Positions 4,217-18,160 of a stretch of 20,998 nucleotides of DNA are shown in pieces. Numbering within the stretch: the stretch's first letter is position 1; the number at the start of each line of letters is the position of its first letter. Source of the DNA: a virus (Duplodnaviria; Heunggongvirae; Uroviricota; Caudoviricetes); the IMG/VR virus record IMGVR_UViG_2877973648_000001, positions 1-20,998 of that record, one strand, 5' to 3'. The notes beneath the pieces are model-generated. The model was not told the DNA's origin. It did no database searches and saw nothing but the letters and a program-made list of their open reading frames with translations. The translations under genes were made by a program, and so were the position numbers.

Positions 4217-4945
4217 ATGAACCGGAAGCAATTCATCCAGTCGCACGGAGCTACTTGCAGTAACTGGACGTGGAGTTGGTCATTTGTTAACCATGAAAAG
4301 AAGATGGTCATCTTTGGGTCATGGGATGTTGAGAGTGAACAAGAGCGGTCAGTCATTCTTCGAGAGCGTTGGGAGTACAACTCAAACAACAAAAAACAAC
4401 TGGGATACACCCAGGCACTGGAACACGTCAGGTTAGTCCATGAAGGCTACGAACTTTACACCTTCAATATGGTTTTCGCAGAACACCCGGATAACCCTGA
4501 AATTGCAGTTATCAAGGATTTTGAGCGTAAATTAAACAAGCGATATCTGCGTAAAGAAGGCGTTGTTTGGTATGCAGACTTCTTACCTAATCCATTCCCT
4601 GATGAAATTCCTTCAGGAGAGAGTTTTGTTGAAGGTGCAAAGACTCAAGTAACAGTGAACTACTACGAACGCGATCCAAAGGCCAGACAAGCCTGCATCC
4701 AACATCACGGTACTACCTGTAAATGCTGTGGTTTCGATTTTGAGAAGGTCTATGGTACACATGGCCGTGGATTCATTCATGTACATCACATCAAGCCGCT
4801 TCATACGATTGGGGAAAACTATGTGGTCAACCCCGTAACAGATATGGTCCCATTATGTCCAAATTGCCATGCAATGGTACATCGTGGGAGCAAAGTACTT
4901 TCAATTGCAGACTTGAAAGAGAAAATGACCTTTTGGAGCGAGTAA
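4217..4945 (+). CDS. HNH nuclease-domain protein with an uncharacterised N-terminal domain (candidate type IV restriction / defence nuclease)
   Basis: Track ORF 242 aa; AAAGGA 7 nt upstream of ATG. C-terminal CKCCGFDF...GFIHVHHIKPLHTIGENYVVNPVTDMVPLCPNCHAMVH is a zinc-finger HNH motif (C-x2-C ... HH ... N ... C-x2-C-H). Confidence 0.7.
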   Translation: MNRKQFIQSHGATCSNWTWSWSFVNHEKKMVIFGSWDVESEQERSVILRERWEYNSNNKKQLGYTQALEHVRLVHEGYELYTFNMVFAEHPDNPEIAVIKDFERKLNKRYLRKEGVVWYADFLPNPFPDEIPSGESFVEGAKTQVTVNYYERDPKARQACIQHHGTTCKCCGFDFEKVYGTHGRGFIHVHHIKPLHTIGENYVVNPVTDMVPLCPNCHAMVHRGSKVLSIADLKEKMTFWSE

Positions 4946-5806
4946 ATGGATTTATCACAATTGAGTAACGTCGAATTGATGCAACTGAATCAGTTGACGC
5001 TTGATGAGTTAGAACGACGAGAGGTTATCAGAACCAGAAACAATCCTATCAGTGAGTACACTGAATGGCTGGTTGCGGATAAGATGCAAATGGTACTGGC
5101 TGCACCTAGTACTAAAGGGTATGACGCTACAACGATTGATGATCGAAAAATTCAGATTAAGTCTCGTAAGAATAATTTAAAAAACAAATCATTAATTCTT
5201 GGGATTATCAGAAATTATGATCTGAACCAATTCGATGAGCTCATTGCCGTAATATATAACCATGATTTCTCAATTCGTTATGCTGTATCCATACCACATG
5301 AATTAGTGAAGGAATATGGTTTTTATAATGAGCACCAGAATGGTTACACTTTAAGAATCAGCAATTTATTACTTAACGATCCACGTGTAACAGACATCAT
5401 TGAATTTATTGATCCAGACACTGAACGTTCAAAGGAAGAGATCACGGTGAAGCCAGATTCAAACACTATCCGGGATCTACAGACAATAGGAATGCAGACA
5501 TTTATTGAGTACTATCAGTATGTTGAAAGTGGTATGAACACAACTGATCTTGTTGAAAAGATGGTAACTGACCATCCAGAATGGAAGGAAAGTACTGCAA
5601 GAACAAAGGCATCTTCAATGCGAAGAGTATTCAAGAATGGCGACAACGTTGAAGCACTAAAAATCATCTATAAGTCGAATCACTCAGCAATAACGGATGA
5701 GATTAAGAGTAAACTTATGACGCTTTGTGAACCGCTCCGGTTTTCCTGGAGAGTATTTTGCCTGAGTGATCAGGCTGCCACATCCCGGTCATTCAGCGAA
5801 GCGTAA
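4946..5806 (+). CDS. hypothetical protein translationally coupled to the HNH gene; native C-terminus replaced by IS-derived codons
   Basis: ATG at 4946 directly follows the upstream TAA (TAAATG). The IS629-like end lies at 5728, so residues after ...KLMTL are read from IS sequence. The reconstructed native gene ends ...MTLWDK (263 aa) using 9306-9314. Possible PD-(D/E)xK-like motif GYDATTIDDRKIQIKSRK. Confidence 0.55.
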   Translation: MDLSQLSNVELMQLNQLTLDELERREVIRTRNNPISEYTEWLVADKMQMVLAAPSTKGYDATTIDDRKIQIKSRKNNLKNKSLILGIIRNYDLNQFDELIAVIYNHDFSIRYAVSIPHELVKEYGFYNEHQNGYTLRISNLLLNDPRVTDIIEFIDPDTERSKEEITVKPDSNTIRDLQTIGMQTFIEYYQYVESGMNTTDLVEKMVTDHPEWKESTARTKASSMRRVFKNGDNVEALKIIYKSNHSAITDEIKSKLMTLCEPLRFSWRVFCLSDQAATSRSFSEA

Positions 5807-6242
5807 TAGGCTTTTTCTGCCTCCACTGGCGGGATATATCCGGTCCGTTCCATCAATCGGTGATTATTGTACCAGTCCACCCATTTCAGCGTAGCCAGCT
5901 CAACATCCTGTCGGGTTTTCCAGCTTTGCCTGTGGATCACCTCCGCTTTGTACAACCCGTTGATACTTTCTGCCATCGCATTGTCATATGAGTCGCCCGT
6001 GCTGCCTGTTGAAGCCAGCAGCTCCGCGTCCTGCAGCCGTTGCGTGTACGCCAGTGACACATATTGCGAACCTTTGTCGCTGTGATGGATGGTACCGCTC
6101 GGGCGTCTGGCCCACAGCGCCTGCTCCAGTGCATCCAGCACGAACGACGTTTCCATCGTGGATGAGACCCGCCAGCCCACGATAACACCGGCGAACACAT
6201 CAATGATGAAGGCCACATATGCGAACCCCTGCCAGGTGCTGA
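5770..6242 (-). CDS. IS3-family transposase OrfB, C-terminal exon (downstream of the group II intron)
   Basis: Translation ...STWQGFAYVAFIIDVFAGVIVGWRV...DSYDNAMAESINGLYKAEVIH... is the DDE catalytic/C-terminal region of IS3-family OrfB; the track ORF 5770-6216 begins at an internal GTG. Confidence 0.75.
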
Positions 6243-8512
6243 GTAGAGTAAGAGGCAGGGCGTAGTCGGACTATTTCCCTGCCTCTCCTCCCCGAACCGG
6301 ACGTGCACCTTTCAGCGCATCCGGCTCTCCATTTAAATGCTGGCGAACGCCATTGCCACTTCTGTAAAGCGCGATGTATACGTGTTTCTGGTCTCCGTCC
6401 TCAGATAGGGATTACCTTCGGGTAGCCGCCAGCGGAACAGCTTCTTGCCTTGCCCCACCAACCGGTACAGTATTTCGCCGCTGAGCTTGCCGTGATTGGT
6501 TTTACCAAATAAAACCCACGTTTTGCTCTGACCCGGTTTCGGTGATTTACACCACCACCTCATCAGGGAAGCGATACCTGTACGGTATTTGCGGGCCAGC
6601 CAGTGAGCCAGCTTCCAGAACACGACACGGTCGATATAACTGAAGACTTTGGCCTTAAAATCAACGAACTGATAGAACATGGCCCAGCCTTTCAGTTTTC
6701 GGTTGAGTTGTTCAGCCATATCGACTTTGCTTTCACTGTAGTTGCCTGATAACAGTGCTGTCAGCGATGCGGCGAAGTTTCTGGCTTTCTCCTGCGGGAT
6801 CGTTGAGACCACTCGCATCTCGCCATAACGACTGCGTTTGCGAATGATCCTGTGCCCCAGAAAGATAAAGCCGTCATTAACATGGGTGATTTTAGTCTTA
6901 TCCATGTTCAGCCTGAGTTTCAGACTGCCTTCGAGCACACCCCGACACTCCTCCCTGATGGCTTCCGCCTGTGCTTTGGTGCCTTTGACGATGAGGACAA
7001 AATCATCGGCATAGCGGCAGTACGCCACCGCGGGTTTCCACTGCCAGTTTTCTCTGACCGCCGTACTTCGGCCCCGTTGGATACTGTTATTCCAGTACCA
7101 CCGATCTTTTCTGGCTTTCCCGCTCAGGTAGCGCTCATGCAGGTATTGATCGAACTCATTCAGCATGATGTTCGATAATAGCGGCGATATAACACCGCCC
7201 TGTGGCACACCTTCACTGGCCGCCCGAAAGAGACCGACATCGATATGTCCCGCCTTGATGGTTTTCCACAGCAGAGTCATGAAACGTGCGTCACTGATCC
7301 TGCGGCGTACAGCCTTCATCAGCAGTCGATGATGTACGGTGTCGAAGTAACTGGACAGGTCGCCTTCAATCACCCAGCGTCCCCGGGTTTCACCACAGTC
7401 TGTGAGCTGTAATTTCACCGTGCGGATCGCGTGGTGGACACTGCGCTCAGGCCGGAAGCCATATGAGAGCGTATGAAAATCACTCTCCCATATCGGCTCC
7501 ATCGCCATCAGCATGGCCCGCTGAACAATACGATCCCGCAACGCGGGGATACCCAGTGGTCGCAGTTTGCCGTTGCTTTTAGGGATGTAAACCCGTCTGG
7601 CGGGCAAGGGCTGGTAGTGGCCTGAGAGTAATTCATCCCTGAGGATTTGCAGCTCAACAGCCAGTCTGGCCTGTAGCATTGTTTTGTTCACGCCATCAAC
7701 GCCGGGGGTATGGGCCCCCTTTGATGAAAGCGTGATCCGCGCCGCTTCAGCCAGCCATTCTGGTTGTGTTATCAGACGCAGCAGCCGTTGAATCCGTAGG
7801 GACGGATCGGTGACTGCCCATGTGGCAAGCTTGCGTTGCATTTCGCTGATTATCAAAGGTCTTCACCTCGTTAGGTCAGTTAATTCACGTCGCAAACACA
7901 TTCAAACTGCTTCCCTTCGCCATGTAATGGGCTTTCCCCATCGCGGACTACTACGGAAGCTCCGCCAGCCAGCGCGTCATCGGAGCCATGCCCCCTTAAC
8001 ATCCGTCGCTGACCTTCCCCGGTTTACCTGCCTGGACTCAGGCATACTGAGGAGGCTGCCCGTCGCACTCTTTATCCTTGCTTGCCGCAAGTTGGCAGAA
8101 GTCAGCAACGCAAGCGTGATAGACGCTGCTGCCCCGGTGTTTCGCATACATGTCAAAACACCTTCGACCGGCAGTGCTTACGTATCACTGCCAGTTCCTC
8201 CTGCACGGCCTGTCAGATCACGTAGGCCGTGGTGACGTTTTCAACCCACAGAGGCGGATTAACGGGTTCATGTTCTTCAGCCTTTCAGTACTTAACCTTG
8301 AGGATCATCTCGGCTTAGTGATCTCGCCTCAATCCCCGTTGTCAGCGGGTTACATCACCCTGCGGGCATGCCGCAGGTCACTGCCGCTCAGGTTCTCCAC
8401 CGTCACACCCGGTGGGATTGTTGGGTTTCTCATCGTGAGTTACCGGTTCAATATTCCAGACAGACTCGCGGTTCATTTAAGCATCCATGCCCGCCCTGAA
8501 CTCCGGGCACAC
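6243..8512 (-). mobile_element. bacterial group II intron inserted in the IS629-like orfB
   Basis: Minus-strand 5' end GTGTGCCCGGAG (GUGYG consensus) starting at 8512; domain V GAGCCGGATGCGCTGAAAGGTGCACGTCCGGTTC at 6294-6327; domain-VI-like stem and 3' end ...CTAC at 6243. Joining the flanking exons gives a continuous OrfB (...ADFTY-V-STWQGF...). Confidence 0.8.
6333..7856 (-). CDS. group II intron-encoded reverse transcriptase/maturase
   Basis: Track ORF 507 aa with RT motifs (...RPLGIPALRDRIVQ..., ...YCRYADDFVLI...) and a maturase X region; ORF ends just upstream of domain V, as is typical for an ORF within domain IV. Confidence 0.85.
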   Translation of the reverse strand: MIISEMQRKLATWAVTDPSLRIQRLLRLITQPEWLAEAARITLSSKGAHTPGVDGVNKTMLQARLAVELQILRDELLSGHYQPLPARRVYIPKSNGKLRPLGIPALRDRIVQRAMLMAMEPIWESDFHTLSYGFRPERSVHHAIRTVKLQLTDCGETRGRWVIEGDLSSYFDTVHHRLLMKAVRRRISDARFMTLLWKTIKAGHIDVGLFRAASEGVPQGGVISPLLSNIMLNEFDQYLHERYLSGKARKDRWYWNNSIQRGRSTAVRENWQWKPAVAYCRYADDFVLIVKGTKAQAEAIREECRGVLEGSLKLRLNMDKTKITHVNDGFIFLGHRIIRKRSRYGEMRVVSTIPQEKARNFAASLTALLSGNYSESKVDMAEQLNRKLKGWAMFYQFVDFKAKVFSYIDRVVFWKLAHWLARKYRTGIASLMRWWCKSPKPGQSKTWVLFGKTNHGKLSGEILYRLVGQGKKLFRWRLPEGNPYLRTETRNTYTSRFTEVAMAFASI

Positions 8513-8927
8513 CGTAGGTAAAATCGGCCACCCAAAGACTATCGGGCCGTTCAGCCACGAACTGCCGGTTCACCCGATCCTGCGGTGTTTCGGCTTTGTT
8601 GCTGCGGGTGGTTCTGACACTTTTGCCGCGTGTCACCCCACGTAGCTGCAGGGCTTTCATCAGGCGCTCAATGGTGCAGCGGGCAACGCCGACACCTTCA
8701 CGTTTTAGCTGTCGCCAGACCTTACGCACACCGTAAACGCTGTAGTTTTCTTCGTATACGCGCTGTATCTCAGGTATCAGCACGGCATCGCGTTTATCCC
8801 GACTACTGCGTCGTTCAGGACACTTCCGGCGTTGCTGATGCCAGTAGTACGTTGACGGAGCAATATCCAGCTCATGACAGACTGGCCCGACCCCGTGTTC
8901 ACCGCTCAGATTTTCCAGAAGCGGCAT
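8513..8927 (-). CDS. IS3-family transposase OrfB, N-terminal exon (interrupted by the group II intron)
   Basis: Translation MPLLENLSGEHGVGPVCHELDIAPSTYYWHQQRR...RPDSLWVADFTY; after Y (codon 8514-8516) the sequence enters the intron. The track ORF continues to 8448 reading intron sequence. Confidence 0.75.
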
Positions 8928-9268
8928 TATTTTTTCCAGTGGCGGTCGAGCTCCGCCTGGGCAAAATACGCTGAAGCCTGACGCAGAATATCATTGCTGC
9001 GGCGCAGCTCGCGGACTTCCCGCTCCAGTTCTTTCAGACGCTGGCGTTCGCTGGCAGTCAGCGCATTCTGCTCATCATCAACGGGCTCCTGCTGACGGAT
9101 CCAGATACGCAATGTCTCGGGAGTGCAGCCGATCTTAGGGGCAATGGAGCAGATAGCGGCCCATTGTGAGTTGTAGGTATTCTGGTTTTCCAGAACCATA
9201 CGAATAGCGCGTTGACGAACTTCAGGGGGAAATCGGTTATGTTTTGTCATCCTGGTTACCTCTCTCAA
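8927..9268 (-). CDS. IS3-family (IS629-like) transposase OrfA, helix-turn-helix protein
   Basis: Track ORF 113 aa: MTKHNRFPPEVRQRAIRMVLENQ...LKELEREVRELRRSNDILRQASAYFAQAELDRHWKK; stop overlaps the orfB start (ATGA). Confidence 0.85.
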   Translation of the reverse strand: MREVTRMTKHNRFPPEVRQRAIRMVLENQNTYNSQWAAICSIAPKIGCTPETLRIWIRQQEPVDDEQNALTASERQRLKELEREVRELRRSNDILRQASAYFAQAELDRHWKK

Positions 9269-9415
9269 AGAGTGTAGTCTCCAGGATTACCGGGGCGGTT
9301 CATTGGGATAAATGAACAAAGTTTTGGTTATATTTTTGATGCAAAAAGATATAATTGTAGTACTTCCACCTTTCGCATTTGGGTAGGTTTGTTTGGGCGA
9401 TTGGTGGAAGTGCTA

Positions 9416-10859: not shown

Positions 10860-10869
10860 AATATATATT

Positions 10870-12024
10870 TCAACGTAGCATGGCTAATGTTCTGGAAATT
10901 CTTATTATATCCTTCTCAATATCATCTAAAACAGGAGTTGAGTTTCTGCTTCGCTCTGCAATTTCTTGCAAAATATATCTATTTAAATGGTTGTTAACAT
11001 TTTTAGGGTCAAGGTTTTCTGGTGTGGGAACAACACAGCACTGCCAATAAAAAATCTCATCTTCAAAATGATTTAGCCATTTAGAATGATATTTTTCTTT
11101 CGATTTTTTCTTGTTAAGGACATAAATGCTAGCCGCAGCTACCACATCCGCAATTTGTATACCATGCGTGACTTTAGAATCAGAAAGAATCATTGGCTCA
11201 GATAGCTTAAATGTGATCGGGATTTTTTTATCATGAAAAGTCTCGAACACAATCTCATCATTGCCTATCATCTCATTGAATGAGTCCTGATGAGTAATTA
11301 ATGGTTTTGAGCTGTCGCATATAGCTCTCAATGTACCAAACTTACTACTCATATCGCACAGGAGATTATAAAGAGAAGTCGTTGTCAAATCTAATAACCA
11401 CTTATCAATCCCAGTACCCTCAAGGCCTTCATATTCTTCTTCAATTATAGAGATGTTATTCTTGGCGAAATCATGAATGTCCATCATAATTTCAGAATTT
11501 TTAGAACCAACAACTGGTTCGATAAAACTATTAACCAATATTTTACCTCGTGAAAAATCTTCAAATCGCGAATGTAATAGTTCTGAATATTCATCCTTAG
11601 CTATTAAAGAAAAATACATTATATTTGAGATGAATAGGTGAAATTTAAGGTTGTAAAAAATTGAGCTTTTAGCTGCTAATACTGGCTCAAAAATATATTC
11701 GAAGAATTTTCCTGAGAGGGCATATTTTTTTTCGTTTACAACCACACGCATACGACCACGGAAATGATTAAGTATTTCATCTACGGCTGGTTGAAATCTC
11801 TTGCTATTTACGAGAGTGCTACCTTTTAGCTCTTCGGCTGCGATCGAGTACTTGTTTATTATATAATCAACAAACTGTTTACTTTCCTCATCATCAGTCA
11901 CGACTGCTGCGTAACTAAAAAAAGGCTGATCTTTTGAAAGTAAGTTATTACCAGTGAATCCTGATTCATCGAAATATACATTCTTTACCAATTTGGTCAT
12001 TCCTTTATGAGCTACAATGTGCAT
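10870..12024 (-). CDS. DUF3800-like protein (conserved DESG motif near N-terminus, Q-x-AD motif near C-terminus)
   Basis: Track ORF 384 aa; ...VYFDESGFTGNN... and ...HGIQIADVVAAASIYV... match my recollection of DUF3800 signature motifs. True start uncertain (ATG 12024, ATG 12000 or TTG 11991). Confidence 0.55.
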   Translation of the reverse strand: MHIVAHKGMTKLVKNVYFDESGFTGNNLLSKDQPFFSYAAVVTDDEESKQFVDYIINKYSIAAEELKGSTLVNSKRFQPAVDEILNHFRGRMRVVVNEKKYALSGKFFEYIFEPVLAAKSSIFYNLKFHLFISNIMYFSLIAKDEYSELLHSRFEDFSRGKILVNSFIEPVVGSKNSEIMMDIHDFAKNNISIIEEEYEGLEGTGIDKWLLDLTTTSLYNLLCDMSSKFGTLRAICDSSKPLITHQDSFNEMIGNDEIVFETFHDKKIPITFKLSEPMILSDSKVTHGIQIADVVAAASIYVLNKKKSKEKYHSKWLNHFEDEIFYWQCCVVPTPENLDPKNVNNHLNRYILQEIAERSRNSTPVLDDIEKDIIRISRTLAMLR

Positions 12025-12781: not shown

Positions 12782-14027
<1,246 letters not shown>

Positions 14028-14900
14028 TCTTGACCCTCCATCTCCGAACAGCTTTTGTATCTTAAGTTAACGATGTCCGCTGCCGCCGGTATTCCCTCGG
14101 GGAGTGATATCCCAGCGCGCTGTGCGGGTGGTTTTCATTGTAATGCGTGAACGCTACTGCAAGGTTTCGCAGTGCTGTTCTCACATCCGGTTTTGGCATG
14201 AACGCGATATAGTCTTCTTTCATCGTTTTCACGAACCGTTCGGCCATGCCATTACTCTGCGGGCTGCTCACCGCTGTTGTGCAGGGCTCCAGATTCAGCT
14301 CTCTCGCGAACCTCCGCGTTTCATACGCGGTATACGCTGAACCGTTATCCGTCAGCCACTGCACCGCTGTGTCGGGCAACCTGTCGCCGAAGCGCTTTTC
14401 CACCGACCTCAGCATCACATCCTGCACGGTCGAACTGTCATAGCCTCCCGTGCTTGCTGCCCAGTCTATGGCCTCACGGTCGCAGCAGTCCAGCGCGAAC
14501 GTTACCCGCAGTTTTTCGCCGTTGTCGCAGCCGAACTCGAAGCCATCTGAACACCAGCGCATATCGCTTTCTGCCACCGCTATCTTGCCCTTATGTTCAA
14601 GCTTCGGTCGCTCTGGTTTGTGATGCAACAACAACAGGTTATGCTCGCTCATTATCCTGTAAAGCCGTTTGGCATTCACAGGTGGCTGTCCCTCTGTGCG
14701 ACGTTGCTTGCGCAGGATGCCCCACACGCGTCGATAACCATAACTCGGCATATCGCTGATAATGTTGAGGATAGCCGACAGTATTTCTGCGTCTGCTTCT
14801 TCATTACGCCGGTTACAGCGCCTGTCCTGCCAGTCGGCAGAACGGTTAATCCGCAGTGACAGTTGCGCACGCGACACGCCCATGGTCCGGCTGACCATGG

Positions 14901-16871
<1,971 letters not shown>

Positions 16872-17039
16872 CTAGATATACTTCAATTGGAATCATTACG
16901 TGAAGATGAATTTAACCTACATAAAATACATGAAAGTACTTTAGGCATAACAATATCTGTAGACCAGCTGACCTGCTCCCCGTTGATTAGTACACCCCGA
17001 TGTTAGTAATGTCTTCATAAGCCACATGAGGACATCCCC

Positions 17040-17303
17040 ATGAAGAAGCGTTTTTCCGACGAACAGATCATCAGTATTCTCCGCGAAGCCGAAGCTGGGG
17101 TACCCGCCCGTGAACTCTGCCGCAAGCATGCCATTTCCGATGCCACGTTTTACACCTGGCGTAAGAAGTATGGCGGTATGGAGGTGCCTGAAGTTAAGCG
17201 CCTGAAGTCGCTTGAGGAAGAGAACGCCAGACTCAAGAAGCTGCTTGCCGAAGCCATGCTGGATAAAGAGGCGCTTCAGGTGGCTCTTGGGCGAAAGTAC
17301 TGA
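17040..17303 (+). CDS. IS407-group transposase OrfA
   Basis: [49 protein letters not shown]...[15 protein letters not shown]... closely resembles IS407 OrfA as I recall it. Confidence 0.8.
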
Positions 17304-17326
17304 CGACAGACCAGAAGCGGGAAGCC

Positions 17327-18160
17327 GTGATGTTGATGTGTGATGCGACCGGTCTGTCGCAACGTCGTGCCTGCAGGCTTACAGGTTTATCCCTGTCGAC
17401 CTGCCGCTATGAGGCTCACCGTCCGGCTGCTGATGCGCATTTATCAGGGCGCATCACTGAGCTGGCACTGGAGCGCAGGCGTTTTGGCTACCGTCGTATT
17501 TGGCAGTTGCTGCGCCGTGAAGGGCTTCATGTTAATCATAAGCGCGTGTACCGGCTTTATCACCTCAGTGGCCTGGGCGTAAAACGCAGAAGACGTCGTA
17601 AAGGGCTGGCAACAGAACGTCTGCCGCTGCTCCGTCCGGCGGCGCCCAATCTGACCTGGTCGATGGATTTCGTCATGGACGCACTTTCCACCGGTCGCAG
17701 GATCAAGTGTCTTACCTGCGTCGATGATTTCACAAAGGAATGCCTGACGGTCACTGTTGCCTTTGGGATTTCAGGCGTTCAGGTCACGCGTATTCTGGAC
17801 AGCATTGCACTGTTTCGAGGCTATCCGGCGACGATAAGAACTGACCAGGGGCCGGAGTTCACTTGCCGTGCACTGGATCAATGGGCCTTTGAGCATGGTG
17901 TTGAGTTGCGCTTAATCCAGCCGGGCAAGCCAACGCAGAACGGATTTATTGAGAGCTTTAACGGACGATTTCGCGATGAATGTTTGAATGAGCACTGGTT
18001 CAGCGATATCGTTCATGCCAGGAAAATTATTAATGACTGGCGGCAGGATTATAACGAATGCCGCCCGCACTCCACGCTGAATTATCAGACACCGTCTGAA
18101 TTTGCAGCGGGCTGGAGAAAGGGTCATTCTGAGAATGAAGATTCCGACGTTACTAACTGA
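17327..18160 (+). CDS. IS407-group transposase OrfB (DDE integrase)
   Basis: Track ORF 277 aa with ...[10 protein letters not shown]...[56 protein letters not shown]... (rve-type catalytic core). Confidence 0.8.

Follow-up and report, generated by a model that had tools for sequence, protein, structure and literature searches.

Nested architecture and exact boundaries of the composite element

The 20,998-nucleotide stretch of viral DNA analysed here (IMG/VR record IMGVR_UViG_2877973648_000001, hereafter the window) contains one mobile element nested within another, in that a group II intron lies inside the transposase gene orfB of an IS3-family insertion sequence (IS). Our preferred reading, to which we give a probability of roughly 93%, is that a copy of the intron E.c.I4 retrohomed into its usual target, after the D-x-T-Y codons, in orfB of a 1305-bp IS3-family element located in a decayed prophage. 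The IS and its intron together span 3575 bp at positions 5728–9302, on the minus strand throughout (Table 1). An earlier reading made without database searches (the sequence-only reading) had already described an intron inside the transposase gene of an IS, and every feature that it named was found where it had placed it.

The intron interrupts orfB with its first base at 8512, where it opens with GUGUG, and its last base at 6243, where it closes with CUAC, and both ends fit the group II pattern of 5' GUGYG and 3' AY. Joining 8513 to 6242 gives an in-frame ADFTY-VSTWQ, with the predicted exon junction in the ligated RNA lying between TTTACCTACG and TCAGCACC; at the DNA level, the intron target across the insertion point is GAYNTNACNTAYN followed by T. 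A comparison with intron-free copies, which the sequence-only reading had proposed as a check, was run on the host element itself: at least nine E. coli records (H51–H59) hold intron-free copies that agree with the joined sequence at 100% identity from end to end, across all 1305 bp. Because a one-base shift of either boundary breaks this match, the intron boundaries are exact to the base, and the 2270-bp length and GUGUG start proposed earlier hold without adjustment. Moreover, both the IS ends and the intron ends are confirmed because natural empty sites exist, two of them with their own 3-bp duplications.

The outer boundaries of the IS are equally well defined. The 27-bp imperfect terminal inverted repeats that had been noted, TGAACCGCCCCGGTAATCCTGGAGACT and TGAACCGCTCCGGTTTTCCTGGAGAGT, match at 23/27 positions, the termini are TG...CA as is typical for the IS3 family, and the expected TTG duplication flanks the element at 5725–5727 and 9303–9305. 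Independent insertions of the intron-free element carry duplications of GTG (L090) and CTT (L091), such that three independent insertions show three different duplications. The terminal repeats, the duplication, the intron boundaries and the exon join do not constitute a chance pattern. A further composite in strain 2273-PO3 (L001) was set aside as uninformative for the IS ends, as it has no target duplication and abuts another IS fragment.

The genes of the host element are organized as orfA and orfB joined by a proposed –1 frameshift. The ALIL pseudoknot (Rfam RF01497) scores 93.3 bits (gathering score 50), and the slip site is inferred to be UAUUUUG, immediately 5' of the pseudoknot. The OrfAB fusion modelled with a –1 shift and joined exons is 403 residues long, equal in length to the programmed-frameshift coding sequence (WP_369707198.1) that the Prokaryotic Genome Annotation Pipeline (PGAP) assigns in the intron-free copies. 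The proposal that exon joining restores the OrfB frame across FTY-V-STWQ is supported by profile searches: the rve match grows from profile positions 27–101 with exon 2 alone (58.6 bits) to positions 2–101 of 102 once the exons are joined (85.8 bits), and joined OrfAB matches the IS3 transposase model NF033516 from end to end (profile 1–369 of 369, 355 bits, cut-off 160). On these profiles, the transposase encoded by joined OrfAB is complete and of the IS3 family.

The composite is widespread in its complete form. Other E. coli chromosomes contain copies that are 100% identical over the full 3575 bp, plasmid copies are 99.9% identical, and composites at one or the other of these levels are found on chromosomes and plasmids of E. 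coli, Citrobacter and Klebsiella.

Table 1. Positions in the window of the composite element, its component parts and nearby features.
Feature	Position	Strand	Evidence or remark
Composite: IS3-family insertion sequence carrying intron E.c.I4	5728–9302	–	1305 bp once intron removed
Target-site duplication TTG, left copy (window orientation)	5725–5727	.	Read from sequence; partner 9303–9305
Target-site duplication TTG, right copy	9303–9305	.	Partner 5725–5727
Left terminal inverted repeat (element orientation), TGAACCGCCCCGGTAATCCTGGAGACT	9276–9302	–	23/27 match to other end
Right terminal inverted repeat (element orientation)	5728–5754	–	Sequence comparison of ends
orfA, 107 residues, helix-turn-helix protein	8927–9250	–	Pfam HTH_Tnp_1, 1.8e-10
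ALIL pseudoknot, proposed –1 frameshift signal for OrfAB, with UAUUUUG at 5' end	8856–8972	–	Rfam RF01497
orfB exon 1, ends ...GAT TTT ACC TAC G just past D-F-T-Y motif	8513–8927	–	Pfam HTH_21, 8.7e-18
Group II intron E.c.I4, 2270 nt, 5' GUGUG...CUAC 3'	6243–8512	–	Named by identity to E.c.I4 copies
Domain I	8018–8507 (intron 6–495)	–	RNAalifold, 39 related introns
Second conserved domain I hairpin loop, AUACGUAAG, same G-U-A core	8177–8185 (intron 328–336)	–	Model M2
Proposed EBS1, UGUAUG, hairpin loop	8145–8150 (intron 363–368)	–	Covariation with 5' exons
Domain II	7964–8017 (intron 496–549)	–	RNAalifold, 39 related introns
Domain III	7909–7960 (intron 553–604)	–	RNAalifold; many pairs with compensatory changes
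Conserved hairpin at domain IV start with Shine-Dalgarno GAGGUG	7856–7869	–	Nearly invariant in 39/39 sequences
Reverse transcriptase/maturase (ltrA), 502 residues	6333–7841	–	RVT_1, GIIM, TIGR04416
Domain V, 34 nt, AGC triad, 2-nt bulge, GAAA loop	6294–6327	–	RF00029, fold, covariation
Domain VI with bulged branch-point A at 6249	6245–6291	–	Fold and covariation
orfB exon 2, begins TC AGC ACC TGG, rest of DDE/rve catalytic domain	5770–6242	–	Pfam rve, rve_2, rve_3
DUF3800 gene in prophage remnant, between composite and terminase genes	10862–11983	–	
IS3-family element in terminase region	14054–15261	–	One of three further IS
IS5 in terminase region	15737–16717		One of three further IS
ISSen4-like IS3-family element in terminase region	17032–18152		One of three further IS

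The intron is a copy of E.c.I4

Intron positions 1–1764 are 99.7% identical to the 1764-bp ykfC fragment of E. coli K-12, and across its whole length the intron shares 98.6% identity with E.c.I4-10 from strain IAI39 (NC_011750 489783–492052, 2270 bp). The ykfC fragment has been catalogued as the 1764-bp, class A copy 'E.c.I4-tr1', which is present in DH10B, BW2952, MG1655 and W3110 within prophage CP4-6 (Leclercq & Cordaux 2012 supplement, PMC3522654). The group II intron database names a copy by nucleotide identity of more than 95% to a named copy (PMC3552965), and because both of our values lie above this level the intron is E.c.I4. Both E.c.I4 and its Shigella twin S.f.I1 belong to open reading frame (ORF) class A, whose members lack an endonuclease domain (Toro & Martinez-Abarca 2013, PMC3552965). 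The intron described here shares with these two a nearly identical sequence, the 2270-nucleotide length, an endonuclease-less protein and a target in orfB of an IS3-family element; nothing of substance differs.

E.c.I4 is common: of 5426 complete E. coli genomes, 2669 carry it, in most cases at 99% identity or above, and its known hosts are IS629, IS911, ISEc16 and ISEc31 (PMC3522654). Here the intron sits after D-F-T-Y plus one base in orfB, and among a limited number of sampled E. coli loci we found E.c.I4 at the same codon (D-x-T-Y plus one base) in at least six different IS3-family elements. The earlier remark that introns in such elements are a known pattern rather than a novelty is correct, as E.c.I4 in IS3-family hosts is documented in the literature; the arrangement is ordinary and already catalogued, and identical composites are already in RefSeq, annotated. 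Among the other copies that we encountered, those on plasmids H15–H18 and H22–H25 hold E.c.I4 inside an IS that is itself interrupted by the IS4-like element IS421, giving three nested mobile elements. Some intron copies are flanked by exons of two different IS, for example that on the E. coli ETEC4088 plasmid (L006); recombination across a shared intron is described as creating chimeric host elements (PMC3522654 supplement), and copies of the L006 type fit this description.

Ribozyme fold and intron-encoded protein

The catalytic core of the intron is readily recognized at its 3' end. Rfam RF00029 matches 6243–6329 (64.9 bits; gathering score 40), in exact agreement with the placement of domain V in the sequence-only reading, and the same segment folds better than shuffled versions of itself (z = –5.3). 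Domain V covaries among relatives (CCGGAUG/CGUCCGG versus CCGUAUG/CGUACGG), as does the helix of domain VI (GGCAGGG/CCCUGCC versus AGCGC/GCGCU), where the bulged A at 6249 lies 7 nucleotides from the intron 3' end. For the 5' part of the intron, an RNAalifold consensus of 39 relatives contains 150 pairs, of which 97 show changes on both sides with pairing kept. The helix closing domain I (intron 6–9/492–495) and helices within the domain carry compensatory changes; a single-sequence fold that closed domain I at intron 379 proved wrong, as covariation places the closing helix at the former position. Domain IV begins at intron 634, at a nearly invariant hairpin holding the ribosome-binding site, and domains I–IV follow the canonical group II order, closed by long-range helices. 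Failure of the segment to fold into domains I–VI, which had been named as grounds for abandoning the intron, is thus not what the consensus fold of the 39 relatives shows, since it yields these domains.

The ORF within the intron that had been read as a reverse transcriptase/maturase matches RVT_1 (1.5e-34), GIIM (1.3e-10) and TIGR04416 (341 bits, cut-off 300), and its YADD motif is intact at residue 277. The Pfam matches of the protein were RVT_1 and GIIM only, with no HNH match and hence no endonuclease domain, and the tail after domain X comprises 76 residues with one Cys and one His. By analogy with other group II introns, the conserved hairpin that opens domain IV probably serves as the binding site of the intron protein. 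In the same region, the annotated ATG of the protein (7841) lies 22 nucleotides from the Shine-Dalgarno sequence GAGGUG, and an in-frame TTG (7856) lies 7 nucleotides from it. The sequence between these two codons, UUGAUAAUCAGYGAA, is almost invariant in the 39 relatives; because this near-invariance includes the wobble positions, it suggests a constraint at the RNA level, such as the binding site of the intron protein.

Proposed pairing between the intron and its target

The exon-binding site (EBS) was sought by testing every column of the intron alignment against the 5' exon that each of 54 related introns carries, with 2000 exon shuffles for each model. The best partner of exon position –1 was intron 363 and that of –2 was intron 364, the latter pair being formed in 54/54 relatives with four pair types. 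The resulting EBS1 model, intron 363–368, paired in 270 of 324 cells, a value that none of the 2000 exon shuffles reached. We therefore propose, by inference rather than experiment, that intron 363–368 is EBS1 and pairs with the intron-binding site IBS1 in the exon. Beside it, A362 faces an invariant U at +1 (52/53). An alternative EBS1 at intron 263–269 (UGUGGGU) formed 7/7 pairs in this copy but showed no covariation, and it was rejected as a chance match since 1428 of 2000 shuffles equalled it.

The loops at 8177–8185 and 8145–8153 on the minus strand are neighbouring domain I hairpins that both carry A-N-G-U-A-N-G, and both can pair with the same exon bases plus U at +1. L021, the only relative with a 3' exon starting with G, has U instead of A at position 330 of the first of these loops.

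Proposed origin and expression of the composite

The IS landed in a DUF6998 gene with duplication of TTG. The intron, we propose, entered orfB by reverse splicing, guided by pairing between EBS1 and the exon CCUACG, after which reverse transcription would have been primed without DNA cleavage; this mode of priming is proposed because the intron protein has no endonuclease domain. Composite copies at different sites may have arisen either because the complete unit transposed or because the intron homed separately each time. The intron and orfB have the same orientation, and therefore splicing can restore the mRNA. From the anatomy of the locus it follows logically that full-length transposase would require spliced mRNA. 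In unspliced mRNA the frame runs into a stop after 21 intron codons, and its product would retain the DNA-binding domains together with the first catalytic aspartate while lacking two of the three catalytic residues. As judged from the sequence, all features needed by both elements are intact in the composite.

The best-studied model of such intron–IS pairs is RmInt1 in ISRm2011-2 of Sinorhizobium meliloti. Both RmInt1 and E.c.I4 are endonuclease-less mobile group II introns whose home is an IS transposase gene, whereas they differ in class (D for RmInt1, A for E.c.I4), in the family of the host element and in the target motif, such that properties of RmInt1 carry over by analogy only. Exon ligation of RmInt1 in vivo was 0.07% (PMC3035460). 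By this analogy, splicing of the composite is probably inefficient, and the copy would be largely silenced rather than regulated.

Weighing the alternatives

Several results weigh against the retrohoming reading, or against parts of it. No Rfam family for domains I–IV matched the intron, even at an E-value of 10, and support for domains I–III therefore rests on our own alignment of relatives. The shuffle control for EBS1 ignores the relatedness of the sequences, and EBS1 pairs with IBS1 CCUACG (8513–8518) at 5/6 positions, with a C-U mismatch at –5. Nor is EBS1 unique, as the loop at intron 328–336 could pair similarly and came second best, with 15 of 2000 shuffles reaching the observed value. 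No convincing EBS2–IBS2 pairing emerged from models M3–M5, which cover the loop at intron 327–336 and did not rise above shuffles. Splicing, lariat formation and mobility of the composite copy are predicted. Finally, the host element carries no ISfinder name, and it could be either one of the four hosts on the published list (IS629, IS911, ISEc16 and ISEc31) or a further one.

The identity of the host element bears on how the composite should be named. The sequence-only reading had called it IS629-like, which stands in the loose sense that the element is of the same general type, with similar ends, an ALIL pseudoknot and a comparable length. With the IS629/IS1203/ISEc25 group it shares terminal repeats beginning with TGAACCGC, a 3-bp target duplication, an rve domain, a length of about 1.3 kb and an orfA/orfB pair joined by a –1 frameshift at an ALIL pseudoknot. 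These same similarities, namely the terminal sequences, the pseudoknot, the gene layout and the near-equal length, are what would favour IS629 itself or an isoform of it. DNA identity, however, is only 74.3% to a PGAP-labelled IS629 copy ('IS3-like element IS629 family'; L004) and 76.9% to a PGAP-labelled ISEc25 copy (L007), relatives of 1310 bp found by megablast are 77.5% identical, and for the intron-free copies PGAP uses only the generic name 'IS3 family transposase'. Elements below roughly 95% identity are counted as different in ISfinder. The host element, at 74–77% DNA identity to that group and 5 bp shorter (1305 versus 1310 bp), is on these comparisons a separate IS3-family element, a relative of IS629 and ISEc25 at about 75% DNA identity and not an IS629 isoform; identity with IS629 is so improbable that we set it lowest among the alternatives, and the description as IS629 does not hold because identity to the labelled copy is only 74.3%.

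Two further alternatives concern what the composite now does. In one, the intron is mainly an off-switch: ligation would be too rare to supply transposase, and the IS would move only with transposase provided in trans from an intron-free copy. A variant holds that the read-through protein, with helix-turn-helix domains and 21 intron-encoded residues, might bind the IS ends and inhibit transposition, an idea in keeping with the early stop of the unspliced frame. The in vivo splicing level of RmInt1 favours such a role, the RmInt1 authors propose that introns of this kind restrain other mobile elements (PMC3035460), and Waldern et al. raise the repressor idea as well (PMC7306698). That splicing value belongs to RmInt1, however, and E.c.I4 is of another class. 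The exons here are 100% identical to intron-free copies and thus show no decay, although given a recent insertion this is weak evidence either way. We regard the off-switch as evenly balanced between being right and wrong; it overlaps with our own explanation and differs from it in emphasis only. In the other, the composite would be a dead relic with hidden inactivating changes in the intron or the IS, as might be expected given that the literature (PMC3522654) records truncated fragments of E.c.I4 as well as copies whose ORF is disrupted, and that copies seen here have an internal stop (L009) or the IS421 interruption. Its intron ORF is nevertheless complete and retains the YADD motif, many genomes hold copies of the intron with 100% identical DNA (protein WP_001189123.1), and domains V and VI, both termini of the intron, orfA, the two orfB exons, the frameshift signal and the inverted repeats are likewise intact, which makes a relic very unlikely.

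A possible wider lineage and its significance

Relatives of the intron protein were collected by scanning one genome per species, which located 311 places encoding a protein related to that of E.c.I4; of these, 80 from many phyla were kept (L010–L089), with protein identities of 66–100%. Almost all of the relatives have GUGYG about 670 nucleotides upstream of the ORF, conserved domains V and VI, and a 3' exon starting with U. Nearly all of those inspected sit after GAY-NTN-ACN-TAY-N, which encodes the D-x-T-Y motif holding the first aspartate of rve transposases. When the exons of ten distant relatives were joined, a long reading frame stayed open through the junction, and six of these relatives were scanned with profiles: four match IS3-family transposases, L033 (564–1241) matches an IS6-family transposase with 209.9 bits (cut-off 125), and L061 (837–1500) is IS481-like or IS3-like.

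Class A was described with three near-identical members in 2013 (PMC3552965) and as very scarce in 2020 (PMC7306698). We offer, as a tentative proposal that is somewhat less probable than its opposite, that the relatives of E.c.I4 form a large lineage specialized as a parasite of the transposase active-site motif, with class A membership of all of them presumed. If true, targeting of this motif would explain how such introns move between unrelated IS families, and any novelty would lie in the lineage and not in the locus.

For annotation, the composite explains the two 'incomplete' IS3 transposase pseudogenes that pipelines report around ltrA, as the element is intact and not broken. Intron–IS pairs of this kind amount to more than 3 kb of repeated DNA in about half of the complete E. 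coli genomes, and they can drive recombination, give rise to chimeric elements and complicate both assembly and annotation. The composite also provides an example of one selfish element parasitizing, and possibly restraining, another.

Genomic surroundings

Over its whole length, the window matches the chromosome of E. coli AREA_C483 at 99.94% identity; there the same parts are annotated by PGAP and the same insertion of the composite is present. The locus is a decayed, IS-riddled prophage beside yeaG. The composite inserted into the DUF6998 gene three codons before its stop. A search found no uninterrupted allele of this target gene, the best homologues in other E. coli being 86% identical. 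An HNH endonuclease gene occupies 4217–4945 and the DUF6998 gene follows directly from 4946, with its last three codons (W-D-K-stop) swapped for a 26-residue tail read from the end of the element. Further along, the prophage terminase region (12807–18152) is disrupted by three additional insertion sequences, and the ISSen4-like element among them contains an IS1222-type frameshift element at 17270–17387 (156.6 bits).

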